NCBI GenBank assembly: GCA_051047955.1
Contig: JBPGPT010000037.1
Location: 62,001 to 126,000, forward strand
Source of the DNA: Cystobasidiomycetes sp. EMM_F5
Lineage: Eukaryota
Reading direction: 5' to 3'
DNA length: 64,000 bases
Part shown: piece by piece, positions 46,960-53,500 of the stretch
Layout: each line of letters opens with the position of its first letter
Position numbering within the stretch: position 1 is the stretch's first letter
Translations under genes and position numbers: made by a program
Notes under the pieces: generated by a model
The model's database searches: none
Seen by the model: only the letters and a program-made list of their open reading frames with translations
Told to the model about the DNA's origin: nothing

Positions 46960-49900
46960 CTAGTACAGGTCCGTCACGATACCTATGGCCGAAGCTCTTA
47001 GGCGTGGTGGATGTGTCTACAGGGTCGGCACTCACCTGCAGCGACGGTCTCGCCACCGCGTCTCATTAGAATACGACCCATGCCCTTGTTGTTGGCGAAT
47101 GTTTCGATTGCAATGTTGCTACGGTTTGATCCTACCGCAGGTCTTATTTTGATCTGAACACGAGCCGAAGAGCTTTTCGAGACCATTCTGCCAGAACGCG
47201 ACTCAGTGGAGCCTCGCAGGCAGACCATGTGCGCTTATTTCCTCACCGAGGGTTTGTCTTGATGACTGCTCCAGTGGTCTTGTCCAAAGTAGCATCGATG
47301 CGTGTGATGACTGCAGACACGTCTTTGCTATGGTGGAACAGCTCGACCTGAAAGAGCAAAGACTCAGGCTTACTTCTCGCGTATTTCAAGCGGCAAGACA
47401 TACAGCACTTCCAGCTGTCAAGGGGAAACTGAGGTCAAAAGTCACGATTTGAGCCGCGAAATGGCTAGTCAGAGGGACGAGGTGTGAGGGCGAGCACAAA
47501 ATACAGCCGACGTTGACATAGACAGGGTCAATGGCAGCCAGGTATATAGTCGTATTGCTGCCCGCCACAGCGTATGATACGTTTTCTCCATCCACGTCTA
47601 TACCTACAAAACAATGGATCCGTTAGCAATCCTTCATTTTGCGGGAGACTTTAATCCGTACTTTTGACAATGCCACTTTCGTCGCCTGGCAGCACAGCTA
47701 ACCGTTCGCCAACTTGTACGATACCCGATTCGATACGACCTGATACTCCCAGGCCAGATGTCCCGGCACTCTGACTGCGGAAGACGTTGGCGATTGGTAA
47801 ACGGAGAGGTGCCTCTAATGCCCTTTCTGGCACCGCAAGCGAGTCTGTATTTAATATTTAGTTTGCCGAGTGCGGTTGAGTGTAGCGAATTCCTTACCAA
47901 GCTGATGTATCAAGGTGGGTCCACTGTACCACTTCTTGAGACTAGTGCTTGGAGGATACACGAGGTTCTCGCCGATCACCGCACCGCACGGCACAAAGGT
48001 CAATTTCGTTGCATTGTAGCCTGCCTGTTCTAGAAAAGGTTTGAGAGCGTCTACAATATAATCGTATCGTTGCTGCGACCAATCGACCTATGCCAAAACT
48101 TAGCTTTGGTGTCTGATGGCTGCATGATCTCGCTCACTGCATCAAGCTTGTTCACAGCTACGACGAGTTGCTGCACGCCAAAGCTTCTGACGAGCAGAGC
48201 GTGTTCGCGCGTTTGCCCACCGTTAATGAAGCCGCTCTCGAACCCGCCCGTACTTGCGTCTACAACTAGGAGAGCAGTGTCTGCTTGAGCTGCACCTGAA
48301 ATCATATTAGGGACAAAATCTCGATGACCTGGCGCATCTAGCAGCGTAAATTGCCGGTGGGGCGTTGAAAAGTGATCAATGCCAATATCAATCGTAACTC
48401 CCCTGTATCAATCCATTGTGAGCCAACAGGTTCTCCGCTGATATTGCGAGACTGCTTACCGTGCGCGTTCTTCCGGCAAAGCATCAAAAGCCCAGGCATA
48501 ACCGAAGCTACCTTTTCCAGCACGGTCACTCTGGCGCTGATTGTCTCTGACCGCCTTGTCCGACATCTCGCCCAGGTCCGCCAGTAGTCGGCCCATCAGA
48601 GTACTCTTGCCCGCATCAACGTGGCCGATGACTACCATTGAAATGACCGGTTTGTATCCCTCTTCAGATTCTTTAGCATGAATGTGTTCCAAAAGCTTTT
48701 CTCTGGCCATTGACACCGTCGGAAGGGTGGTCACATCTTCCTTGAGATGATCATCCGTAGCCTCGTCAGCTAAACCCAGACCATTGAGATCTTGCTGCAG
48801 CTGAGTGACGGTTTCACTCGTGCCACTTTGTGCCATTTTTACGCCCGGCTTGCTAGCAGTCGAAGCTGAAGGGCTGGCCTTGGTACTAGACAAAGCCTGA
48901 GCCTGAGCTTTAGTTGAATGCTTGTCCGCTGCTTGTACCGGCTTCGTAGGCGTCGGTAATTGCTTTCCTTGGGTTTTCGCTCCTTTAGCGGCTAATAACA
49001 AACGGCGTAACATGGTCAATAAGCGCGTCATGCAAGGACTGTGATAGACCACTGAGGGAAATGCGATGCGGAAACGGAGTAGCAGAGTCTGGTGCGTGCA
49101 GAGATTCGTGTAGCCACTCATGACCTCGCTTTTGTGGCCTTCACTGGCCTTGAGGTATATTCCGGGGGCACATCGAAGGCGGTAGTAGGCCTCCCTGACA
49201 AAACTCGAGCGAGAAGCACGTCATGTTCGACGCGAACACTTGGTGTCATAGTAGCCGCAAAAGCTGATGGCCTCGCCAGCATCGAATTCGCCGATTGAGG
49301 CGTACTGACAGCAGTCGCTTCGGGAAACAGAGACGACTGAGGCAGTTTGTCGACTTCTGCCTCTGTTGCGACAGACTGCTCCGCTGCCGCTCTATTGACT
49401 GTAGCCTTAGATACAGTCGTTTTGGATGGTCCTGCTCTGATCTTGGCTTGCAGCTTGGACAGTTTCTGCGGTTGCGGTGTACCACTTTGTACGACCTTCG
49501 CATTTAGCGCTTTCGTCGCAAATTTGCTCTGGTCGGGTCGTTCCAGAGCATTCGCTTCTGTTGACTTGCCGTTGGCCGCCTGCACGCCTTTAATTGACAG
49601 TGCGGTTTCCAATTGACTTGCTAGAGTCATATCATTTTCGACTGTAGCGCCAGATAGTGTCTCTGCGCTCGCGATAGGCGCTTCTTCTGCTTTCGAAGTA
49701 CAAGTGAAGAGAGTCGGCTATTGTCGCAACATATGTAATGAACCCGTTTGACGCGAGACGGAAGGATGTGTAAAGGGATGTATGGACATGGGTGGGGGAG
49801 GTTTAACATTTCGAAAGCTTACCTGCAGTTTTATTCGCCTTTAGCATGCTCTTTTGTTGCTGCTCTACATGCAGAGACGTTGTGTGAGCCATCCGGTTGT

Positions 49901-50356
49901 CTACCGTCCTTAGCGCAGCGCAGCCCACCCAGTAAGTATGCAATGGATTGCTCCTGGTCAAAATAGTAATTCCACAGAGCCGATTTGATGTCGTGGTCTG
50001 TAAAACCCGGCCCAAGAATATCGCGTATACTGGCGAGACCTGCTGCCAGTTGTTCTGAGTGGCGTACGTTGTCAGCTTTCACATCTGAATCACATCCGTC
50101 CAGAATTGGCCAGGCTGACGGTTCTGCTGTGCGGTCGCTCCGGCTGTTTCAGCAAGTCAGCCCCATTCCTTCCGGAGCGAAGCGCCTCAGCACACACCAT
50201 ATTCGTGCTCGTCGTCGTAGTCATCCATGGCCAGCTCGTCTGTTTGCGACCATATTCGAAAAGCGACGTCAGACTTGAATATCTGTACTTGTACATTTGA
50301 GACGGCCGCAGCGCACCATCGATGTCCATGTTACGCAGCGCTCTGTGTCGCGACAT
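46960..50356 (-). CDS. HBS1: HBS1-like translational GTPase (eRF3/EF1A family) with an alternative Ski7-like exon
   Basis: [11 protein letters not shown] start, HBS1 N-domain ([11 protein letters not shown]), [42 protein letters not shown]. Ends GETVAAGIVTDLY*. Confidence 0.93.
49118..49686 (-). CDS. Putative alternative terminal exon of HBS1 encoding a Ski7/HBS1LV3-like region
   Basis: Open frame from the CAG acceptor at 49687-49689, in phase with the donor at 49822. Encodes [19 protein letters not shown] and AFDVP. Ends at TGA 49118. Confidence 0.68.
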
Positions 50357-50571: not shown

Positions 50572-53500
50572 TCAACCGTACACCCGTATTGATCCATCGG
50601 CTCCAGCGCTGGCGACATATGGATGTGTAGGATGGTAACGTAGATCCAATACACCTTCGCCGGCCTTGATGCGGTGTGCGTTGGGAATCTCTTGGATACA
50701 CTTGCGTGATTGCAGCAGATCCCAAAAGCGGATAATCCCATCGTGAGAAGCGCTTGCGAGGGTGAGCCCCGCTGGATCGACGTCTAAGGCTGTCACCGCG
50801 TCGCTGTGTGCTTGCATGGAGTGCGTACATGTACCGGTGGCAAGGTCAAATATGCGAATGAAACCGTCTTCGTGGGCGGTGATCAGTAGAGCTAGCGTTG
50901 GATGCGAGACGATCCGATTTATTTGTGTTGCAGGAGTGCCGTCTACTCGACAGATGTTAGCTTCGACCGGGAAAATAGGTACTTTGCGTTTCAAAACTCA
51001 CCATGAGTCTCGTTGGCCTTGAGTGTCTGTACCAGCTTGCCCGTTTCGACATCGAATATTCGGACAAGAGAGTCTTGATAGGCAACAGCCAAGCGGGTCA
51101 TGTCATTCTGACACAGCGCAAGGCTAGTTGGCACAGGCCTCGCACCCTCCTCGCTGCCGTCTGTACCGCCAGCGTACCAAGATAGCTTGAGCGACCCACT
51201 AGGTTGACCATCACCGCTTCCTGCGGTATGAGAGCTCTGACCGGTCTGCTGTTGACTTCGTGAGACATTCCAAACCTTGACGGTTCCATCAGCACTGGCT
51301 GAAGCGATAATCTCAATCTGCTGGCCTGAAGCAGCATCTGCCGCATTGGCAAGCAAGCAAACATCCCACACGGCGTCAGTATGACCTTCTAATCGCCTGA
51401 GATTGAGGTGAGGCTCGAAAGGCGCATATGGGTCGTCCCGCTCCTGCGAAGGAATTTGCCAGACTCCAATCGTAGCGTCCAAAGAAGAGCTAAAGATCCG
51501 ACCACTGCCACTCGAGATACAGACCGCAGTGACAGGCGCCCGATGTCCCCTGTAAGTATGCGCTGGCTTGCTATCCGGTACTGGCAGATTGCGCGCAGAC
51601 GCGGATAGCGATGCTCGATCCATACGCCATATCTTCAGGGTACAGTCATCACCGGCGGTGATTAGCATAACATCCCATGGCCACTTCGTCTGGTCGAAAG
51701 CCAGACATCGAGCACAGTCCAGATGACTAGCAGTGAAAATTCAGCATGCAAGATCCGAATTGAGCAGAGGTGGCTATCTTACCTTCTTATGGTACGTCTA
51801 GGCTTCCACACCTGATGTTGACTCTCGTTTACCGCCGTTGCACTACTGGCGGTACTGAATGAGGAATCGCTCCGCAGCCTCCTTGCTGCAACATCAGCTT
51901 GACTTTCCGAGATGAGCGCGCTCAACTCGCTGTCGCCAGTTTTAGGACTGCTAACACTCTGACCTGCCTTCTTCAAAGCTTTGCGCCATTCGTCGGTATT
52001 GTCAGGTCGAAATATGGCAGTTCCGCGGTTATTGATTTCAGGACTATTAGAGTCACCTTCGGGAGGTAAAGATGAGAGAGTCGTCGAGTTGCGAACTATG
52101 GGAGACGAATTGCTAGCGACTGACGCTTGGCTGGAGGTGTCGGGCGCTGTTGTCGAGAGGGGAGGATTGGGCACAGACGATGCGAGCTTACTTCCGACGA
52201 CGTTTGTGCTAGTTGCTGATGTTGCAGCAATATTGGTAACGCCGGAAGCTCTATCTAAAAAAGGCTGCCCGTTTGTATCGCCACGTGCTTCTCGAGCTGC
52301 CTCTACTTGAGGCGCATCTGCGGTACCGTTCGATACGTCACGCTGATTCGGTTCTGATTTCTGCACGCTGTCCGCAGGCTCTCTATCTGTCGGTCCGAGC
52401 GGCTCTTGTGCACTGCCATCGACGTTATGCCGTTGCGCTTGTCGCAAGTCAAATGCTTGACCGCCTGGCACCACCGGCATGTCGAGCATAGTCTTCCGCG
52501 GCCGATGTAAGCCCGCAACGCCCCTCTCGGGCAAGGGATTGAGCGCGGAAGCCGAAGTAAGATATGATATTTCTTGCAGACATTGCTTCAGGTATTCCCG
52601 TGATTTCGCTCGTCCACGAGGGTCACGAGTGTGAGCAGAATGCCAGGCTAACCCGGTAACCCCAATTGTATTGTTGCCTACATTTGCACCGATTGACCCG
52701 GCGCCATTCTGAGCCGCGGCGAGCAGAGCTGGGAGAGCCACAGTTGAGGAGGGTCTGGTGAGAGACACAGAACTTGCAGCCGCAGTGGCAGCAGAAACTA
52801 TGACTTCCGGTACAGCTGTCGAAGGGTGGCAGTCAACATCTCGTGGAACCTTTCATCACATGCTTCGAAAGAGCACACCTGGTTTATCGTCTTCGTCGCC
52901 TTGTGAACCCGCCTTGGCAGATGCAGTACCCTCCTTTGTTGAAGGGGCCTGAAGCTGGACCTTCTTCTTGTCTGCCATAGCCTTTCGGAGATTGTCATCC
53001 TTCTTGCTGTCTTTGTCAGGCTTGTCAGATCCGGCCTTTTCGCTGTCCTTGTCGTCCTCTACAGATCCCGACTCGCTCTGCGTGTCCTTTGAGTCTTTCC
53101 GCTCCTTGTCCTTTGTCGCCTGTGCCTGCTGAGCTGCTGCCTGGGCTTGAGCATGCTGTTGGGTGAGATACTTTTGGCGTTCTTGCCGGAGAGCATACTC
53201 GAGCATCTTTACACGCCGCATGAGGTCTGTCTTGAGGTTCTCGTTTCCACGTCGTTCACCTTCAAGCAGAGCTATCCGGGCCTGCGTCATGGGATCCCAA
53301 TAAAACGTACATCAGTTTCTCAAGCGAATCCACCTGCAATACGAACACTCACGCGCATCTCTCCGCGCTCAATCTCCCACTCGTTGCGTTCTCGCTCGTA
53401 CCGCCGCCATTCCGTCTGCAGATAATGCAATACCTGGCCCAGGTTGATTTGATTTGGAAGCGTCGGCGCCCCAGTTGCTGGCGCTTCGAGGGGTCCAACT

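Follow-up and report, generated by a model that had tools for sequence, protein, structure and literature searches.

A predicted Ski7-like alternative exon with a degenerate C-terminal module in the HBS1 gene of Cystobasidiomycetes sp. EMM_F5

We analysed a 64,000-nucleotide (nt) stretch of DNA from Cystobasidiomycetes sp. EMM_F5 (assembly GCA_051047955.1, contig JBPGPT010000037.1, positions 62,001 to 126,000), hereafter called the window. The minus strand carries an HBS1 gene at approximately 46960–50356, and an 831-nt intron of this gene contains an open reading frame (ORF) that resembles the Ski7-like part of HBS1 loci in other basidiomycetes. Our data suggest that a single HBS1/SKI7 gene is probably spliced in two ways, yielding either Hbs1 or a Ski7-like protein that has no GTPase. 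The degenerate C-terminal module of the Ski7-like frame is the sole surprising element of the locus.

All features of the gene described below are on the minus strand. In our exon model the distal splice produces an in-frame Hbs1 coding sequence of 1920 nt, specifying 639 amino acids (aa). The 5' exons common to both products lie within 49823–50356 (50356–50317, which includes the ATG, 50239–50198, 50143–50120, 50054–49929 and 49864–49823) and encode HBS1_N. Exons specific to Hbs1, encoding the linker and the translational GTPase domains, lie within 46960–48991. The first four are 48991–48460, 48402–48138, 48087–47898 and 47844–47662; the last four are 47603–47404, 47347–47247, 47187–47036 and 46982–46960. 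The 23-nt last exon and the 53-nt last intron were read from model output. Pfam searches matched HBS1_N to 49831–50148 (E=4.5e-10) and GTP_EFTU to downstream exons (E=9.7e-26 and 3.2e-10), so that the two domains lie either side of the 831-nt intron. A further downstream exon gave a weak match to GTP_EFTU_D2, below the cutoff (E=0.01, 16.7 bits compared with 30.3 bits). With HBS1_N, GTP_EFTU and the weak D2 match in one reading frame, the locus codes for Hbs1.

The introns, in gene order, are 77, 54, 65, 64, 831, 57, 50, 53, 58, 56, 59 and 53 nt long. Because the other 11 introns measure 50–77 nt, the intron at 49822–48992 is more than 10 times the usual size. Its 5' splice site, gtaagc (49817–49822), would be shared by both splicing patterns and is in phase 1 (ACTGCAG|gtaagc; the intron starts at 49822). 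At the distal acceptor, ttattag|CCGCTAAA, 48992 is the last base of the ag and 48991 the first of the exon, which continues the Hbs1 frame (CC GCT AAA). The corresponding bases of the proximal acceptor, gaaagcag|AAGAAG, are 49687 and 49686, again in frame (AA GAA GCG). The frame opened here encodes 189 residues and ends with a TGA at 49120–49118. Hence, the proposed proximal intron is 136 nt long (49687–49822); it is pyrimidine-rich and ends in tandem AGs (aAG/cAG/aAG/aAG). The Ski7-like alternative exon, supported by a profile match and by codon usage, spans 49118–49686. Between its stop codon and the distal acceptor ttattag are 126 nt (48992–49117), non-coding in the Ski7 frame, where they contain three stops.

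A previous sequence-only reading of the window had proposed this arrangement. Direct reading and recomputation confirmed the phase 1 donor at 49822. The in-frame distal acceptor at 48992, which was said to give full Hbs1 by removal of an 831-nt intron, agrees with the 1920-nt coding sequence, and the claim that this intron far exceeds the usual size also holds. The proximal CAG acceptor at 49687, credited with about 190 codons and a stop at 49118, opens the 189-residue frame described above. That reading had the splice sites and the Hbs1 frame right and overlooked one 24-nt exon at 50143–50120.

If the intron is fully retained, the upstream frame stops after six codons (..KTAGKLSKC). Hence, the ORF can be translated from the HBS1 start codon only by way of a splice into the AG cluster. 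The only other AG between the donor and the cluster, at 49718, gives a stop after 28 codons. Downstream of the conserved motifs there is no phase 1 donor, so the complete ORF cannot be joined to the GTPase exons. The cluster itself consists of four in-frame AGs at 3-nt spacing (49690, 49687, 49684 and 49681; within 49681–49691), similar to a NAGNAG arrangement. Through use of the tandem AGs, the Ski7-like isoform could differ in one to three residues where the exons join.

We examined the coding character of the exon. The proposed frame has its terminal stop only; each of the other two frames has five. A codon log-odds score, trained on 20 long window ORFs (25,425 nt), was +0.21 bits per codon for the exon in frame and −0.36 and −0.19 for the other frames. 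Two Hbs1 exons scored +0.25 and +0.24 bits per codon in frame. Pfam placed neither the alternative exon nor the two longest antisense ORFs inside the intron in any family. An Rfam search of 48800–50000 gave no match at E up to 1 and hence no sign of an intron-hosted RNA.

Homologs of the exon appeared with profiles alone, after searches with the single sequence. To identify longer proteins we searched with the neighbouring Hbs1 exon, which retrieved 955 basidiomycete Hbs1 models at E<=1e-5. Nineteen were examined, picked by length among 120 listed. Sixteen of the 19 have an insert between HBS1_N and the GTPase, with elements ordered SKLxxLA / LSKLxxK, PSxF(A/G)xxL and FxFxxPSPDD. In the other three the full insert is missing: P0003 is a plain Hbs1, and the SPDD part is absent from the models P0020 and P0053. 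A profile was built from 18 relatives, with the window left out (16 database inserts and the frames of two metagenome contigs, L001 and L003, described below), and searched against the 1381 six-frame window ORFs of at least 30 aa. The intronic ORF was matched with E=2.1e-7 (28 bits); the next ORF gave E=2 (5.2 bits). The aligned part spans KLSKLQ to PSAFAATM and ends before the C-terminal motif. Consistent with this, BLASTP against the L001 frame gave E=5e-5 over KLSKLQ..FAAT, and the exon motifs are colinear with the Ski7-like regions of the relatives. The ORF sits in the HBS1 gene between the HBS1_N and GTPase exons, in frame with the upstream exon. Taken together, these results indicate that the intronic ORF is a homolog of the Ski7-like region of basidiomycete HBS1 loci, as judged by sequence. 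An alignment of the exon to such loci had been set beforehand as a check of the earlier proposal, and the profile match and colinear motifs bear it out.

We next turned to related loci. Metagenome contigs were scanned with P0002 and three loci, L001, L002 and L003, were recovered. Over 541 aa the window's Hbs1 is 69–73% identical to L001/P0002 and 67% identical to L002; the best named relatives, Sporobolomyces koalae and Rhodosporidiobolus, reach 55–57% over the same length. The nearest named relatives of the Hbs1 are in Pucciniomycotina. L001 (2664 nt) has an intron-free GTPase part, where the window has seven introns. Where the window has its long intron, L001 has kept, in homologous position, an 888-nt GT..AG segment (102–989, donor AAAG|gtgagt). 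A 295-codon frame runs from HBS1_N through this retained intron (..QKLSKLQQRVLA..ASPFAATLAPS..AAFAEPSPDDLVRQAKKPSLGQTKLGGTR), with a stop at 887–889, which leaves 100 nt to the acceptor. L002 (2006 nt) comes from a related species; it is complete, free of introns and of the size of an Hbs1 message. It passes from ..GAGAAAG straight to the post-acceptor sequence, which is an Hbs1-type junction at the homologous site. The two contigs were compared by blastn and by their junction strings; positions 237–337 of L002 match 1–101 of L001, ending exactly at the L001 donor. Both contigs lack introns, have their ends at no more than about 50 nt from the coding sequence and are presumably transcripts. 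Read in this way, L001 places the exon in the processed RNA of the nearest relative. In its retained intron, the 5' part (102–209) is open in the upstream frame for 36 codons. Plain retention would therefore encode a Ski7-like protein in L001, whereas the window frame stops after six codons.

L003 is genomic and has introns, one of which shares its EERxR|GVT position with an intron of the window. The contig starts inside the exon (..PSSFAATLSP..AFASPSPDDVVLFARKGTALAGVTPKRK, AFASPSPDD..KRK) and reaches a stop at 231–233. By our own reading, about 107 nt separate this stop from the Hbs1 exon. Thus, all three loci with the exon share one layout: a Ski7-like frame, a stop, 100–126 nt, a phase 1 acceptor and the Hbs1 exon. 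The end of L003 (~2665–2705) carries what we take to be Illumina adapter sequence (AGATCGGAAGAGC..), likely left untrimmed in the assembly.

Database proteins show a similar layout. A profile search (A2 alignment, 41–394-aa range) gave 26 matches, 25 of them other than the window. Among the 25 are short HBS1_N proteins of Rhizoctonia solani, Ceratobasidium spp. and Sporobolomyces koalae (320–364 aa) and of Serendipita (305 aa). In two genomes the locus tag of the short protein adjoins that of a GTPase-only model, with both on contigs of equal length (JCM15063_006492/006493 and OPQ81_009776/009777), and a gene caller yields adjacent split models of this kind when a stop separates the parts. The locus appears to be annotated as two adjacent genes, P0144/P0007 in Sporobolomyces koalae and P0129/P0119 in one Rhizoctonia solani genome. 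Other genomes have the HBS1/SKI7 parts fused into proteins of 786–1291 aa. On the basis of these sequences, a truncated product with no GTPase appears to be the basidiomycete norm.

The exon contains several short motifs. A 10-residue helix motif including KLSKLQ (49436–49465) is a candidate SKI3-docking helix; L001, Rhodosporidiobolus and P0137 all have the same KLSKLQ. This helix may make a SKI3-type contact, as residues 451–464 do in human SKI7 (PMC11540850). RPSAFAATM, a SKI7-like motif of the RxxxFxxxL type, lies at 49247–49273, exactly where the sequence-only reading had put it. In 14/14 aligned sequences its S and F are invariant. The 10-residue form of the motif (49276–49247) has R, F and M at i, i+4 and i+8, with M replacing L, and fits the metazoan consensus A+PShFAahL (PMC6143672). 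We expect this to be the RRP43/MTR3-binding helix. A middle element between the two exosome motifs, a 10-residue helix at 49193–49222, aligns with SLAQVYSGIVSG of the Rhizoctonia group. Last comes AFDVPPEY (49180–49157), the start of a degenerate Patch 4-like remnant with a 12-residue tail (49121–49180), at the position of the relatives' (F)xxxSPDD. AlphaFold2 (AF2) was run on the exon with a 14-row alignment and gave a mean predicted local distance difference test (pLDDT) score of 55.6 and a predicted template modelling score of 0.18, and so a weak secondary-structure hint only. The low-confidence model has short helices at residues 77–83 for KLSKLQ (block pLDDT ~74), at 141–145 for RPSAFAATM and at 152–162 for the middle element, with none past residue 162. 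The binding functions of the Ski7-like product are, throughout, putative and assigned by analogy.

We propose the following mechanism. In a single-copy-style HBS1/SKI7 gene, splicing of donor 49822 to distal acceptor 48992 would remove 831 nt and yield the 639-aa Hbs1 (HBS1_N, linker and translational GTPase), the partner of Dom34/Pelota. If this donor is joined instead to the CAG at 49687, the proximal acceptor, or to a neighbouring in-frame AG, the 569-nt exon would be included. The predicted product of 280 aa would consist of HBS1_N and a disordered region with short helical motifs, terminating at TGA 49120–49118 with no GTPase. By homology with Ski7 and HBS1L3, this short protein would be expected to link the SKI2-3-8 helicase complex to the cytoplasmic exosome, relying chiefly on the first of the contacts. 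Bridging of this kind is plausible with no Patch 4 because the PFDF..SPDD motif had only a minor part in exosome binding in human cells (PMC5389692). A Ski7-like product with no GTPase is the best reading of the exon because no phase 1 donor joins it to the GTPase exons and because a stop ahead of the GTPase part is conserved in the relatives. The earlier proposal of such an isoform is thus supported by the profile match, the colinear motifs and the layout of the relatives.

Several observations weigh against this mechanism. For this organism, we infer both the use of the proximal acceptor and the transcript end. By our reading, the proximal branch site, ttcac, departs from the ctgac/ctcac/ctaac common in the gene, as does the distal ttgac. 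With the single exon sequence as query, neither a word-index search nor phmmer over 1.84 billion representatives matched anything other than the window's own ORF, P0001. The transcript status of L001 and L002 is presumptive, and neither has a poly(A) tail. L001, the only transcript-like contig of a relative with the exon, retains the whole intron including its 5' part, and so does not demonstrate proximal-acceptor use. Finally, the Patch 4-like module is degenerate in the window; PMC6143672 calls this module universal in SKI7 orthologs, and 13/13 relatives keep it.

These observations were considered together with other explanations for the exon. The frame may be a relic of Ski7-like descent, now unused or decaying, so that the 831-nt intron is always removed and Ski7 has been lost or is supplied by another gene. 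We regard this as unlikely, though it is the strongest of the alternatives. The frame is intact over 189 codons, against five stops in each of the other frames, and has exon-like codon usage. The KLSKLQ and PSxFAAT motifs are well kept, and an in-frame acceptor cluster is found exactly where the frame opens.

Less probable again is an internal start. In this case a transcript would begin within the intron and be translated from Met19 (MTLASQ.., ORF P0001), giving a Ski7-like protein with no HBS1_N. An ATG is available at 49630–49628, Ski7 of Candida albicans arises from an alternative transcription start (PMC3597508), and the fully retained intron is untranslatable from the upstream frame in the window. 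Conversely, HBS1_N and the Ski7-like part are joined in one frame both in the short proteins of the relatives and in L001, and conserved residues (APIAS.., LASQLE) begin upstream of Met19 or at it.

We consider it very improbable that the ORF is part of a cassette exon, in which an internal phase 1 donor, CTGTCA|gtacgc at 49306, is spliced to 48991 to produce a long, GTPase-containing isoform. This donor scores 0.68, within the 0.64–0.76 of the gene's real donors, and many database models do fuse the Ski7-like region to the GTPase (786–1291 aa). However, a splice from 49306 deletes RPSAFAATM and everything after it, and no phase 1 donor follows the motifs. The stop and the C-terminus are conserved in the relatives, and PMC3597508 Text S1 judged the equivalent introns annotated in Cryptococcus neoformans and Ustilago maydis to have no support from expressed sequence tags or RNA-seq. 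A chance open frame unrelated to Ski7, which would fit the missing Pfam family and the missing single-sequence homolog, is refuted by the profile match with its clean control, the motifs colinear in 13 relatives and the codon usage.

Alternative splicing to Hbs1 or a Ski7-like protein is therefore our preferred reading, and within it the C-terminal module calls for separate treatment. In the window, AFDVPPEY is followed by 12 residues. Conversely, 13/13 relatives (11 database proteins, fetched from the 25 short-protein matches for this comparison, plus L001 and L003) have SPDD followed by a tail of 19–25 residues, although this set is biased towards SPDD because the query that found them contained it. 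The tail reads ..V..AR.GT.L.. in all 13, with basic residues at its end. The Patch 4-like or S3 motif, defined as PFxFxxPSPDD with a following helix, is not present in the window. A profile of the C-terminal module, built from the 13 relatives, had no match among 2357 window ORFs of at least 15 aa, the best hit being unrelated (E=0.79). The claim that F..PSPDD has here decayed to AFDVPPEY is thus borne out.

In the Hbs1 frame, no stop occurs in the 76 codons that precede the distal acceptor (48992–49220), a stretch overlapping the end of the Ski7-like ORF. This is probably due to chance, which we put at roughly 0.03 for 76 stop-free codons. Beside a C5 run the open frame reads ..KASEGHK.., faintly like the AREGTR of the relatives. 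A frameshift at the C5 run was tried and rejected: when the frames were joined with X at 25 break points, the hybrids scored at most 0.4 bits with the tail profile, compared with 1.1 bits for the plain frame.

The window may, tentatively, encode a minimal Ski7, in which the SKI3-type and RRP43/MTR3 helices are kept and both the CSL4-binding Patch 4 and the C-terminal helix reaching SKI2 RecA1 are lost. We hold this to be possible rather than likely. If true, SKI-exosome coupling would proceed without the contact kept in every other basidiomycete, plant and animal SKI7 examined; alternatively, there would be a compensating change in CSL4 or SKI2. A natural variant with no copy of the otherwise invariant SPDD module could test how much weight that contact carries in exosome-SKI coupling.

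Two further features of the locus were noted. The 24-nt micro-exon at 50143–50120 (CCGGAG..GAACC) is flanked by introns of 54 and 65 nt and has an unusual donor, gtcagc. Its inclusion makes the HBS1 N-terminus colinear with that of L002 (EYPGITPDQQEQMVNG in the comparison). Upstream on the same strand, at 50575–52852, is a gene for a striatin-family WD40 protein (Pfam WD40, E=8e-23 and 1e-20; the Striatin match is weak, E=1.4e-4, and below cutoff). The last coding ORF of this neighbour ends ~215 nt before the HBS1 ATG.

For annotation, our results imply that the locus should carry two products, the 639-aa Hbs1 and the 280-aa Ski7-like protein. Automatic pipelines tend to fuse or split such loci. 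The locus also adds a lineage poorly represented among named genomes to the evidence for a GTPase-less Ski7 as the basidiomycete norm. Neither a paper on this lineage nor one describing a Ski7 that lacks Patch 4 came up in the literature, although no search was aimed at that and the 2018 PNAS follow-up was not covered.

Alternative splicing of SKI7/HBS1 is established in ascomycetes, animals and plants (PMC3597508, PMC6143672). In the ascomycetes Lachancea kluyveri, Aspergillus and Saitoella the intron position is the same as in the window, and one donor is likewise used with a proximal site for Ski7 and a distal site for Hbs1. Conversely, both ascomycete isoforms contain the GTPase, and S3 lies downstream of the distal site, whereas the proximal form predicted for the window stops before the GTPase.

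Human HBS1L isoform 3 (SKI7) also has an N-terminal domain common to HBS1L and no GTPase (PMC5389692; PMC11540850). As described in PMC11540850, a helix at residues 451–464 (Leu454, Ile458) contacts SKI3. A second helix at 555–572, which holds the RxxxFxxxL of PMC5389692, occupies the RRP43-MTR3 cleft. Residues 582–593 lie between RRP43 and the RRP45 C-terminal domain, 602–616 contact CSL4, and a helix at 617–632 contacts the SKI2 RecA1 domain. The window resembles this protein in having an RxxxFxxxL-type exosome-binding helix with RP at its start, and in the order of a SKI3-binding helix followed by exosome patches. The human form differs in using a terminal alternative exon 5 and in its 632 residues with a long insert. 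It also contains PFDFxxxSPDDIVKxNQ, a CSL4-binding motif that reaches as far as SKI2; no recognisable version of this occurs in the window, which has M for L in the first motif.

The closest comparison is with basidiomycetes. Marshall et al. (2013) showed exon skipping for Hbs1 in this group (PMC3597508). In Text S1 of that paper they proposed, for Cryptococcus neoformans and Ustilago maydis, a truncated Ski7-like protein that has no GTPase and carries motif S3 close to its end; the mechanism was called not entirely clear. Hence, the exon that the sequence-only reading had presented as hidden belongs to an arrangement that is neither hidden nor new in kind. As in those species, the window has a single gene, in which skipping would give Hbs1 and a stop precedes the GTPase exons; it differs in its degenerate motif S3 (Patch 4), and its splice usage is predicted. 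The short HBS1_N proteins (P0129, P0127, P0144, P0145 and others; 305–364 aa) run, like the window, from HBS1_N through SKLxxLA repeats, LSKLxxK and PSxF(A/G)xxL to their end. All of them end ..SPDDxVxxAR.GT.L..(K/R)(R)K, whereas the frame in the window ends with PPEY and 12 residues. Because its Patch 4 falls outside the strict motif definition, we class the window as a variant of the published arrangement, to which it appears orthologous by position and profile.

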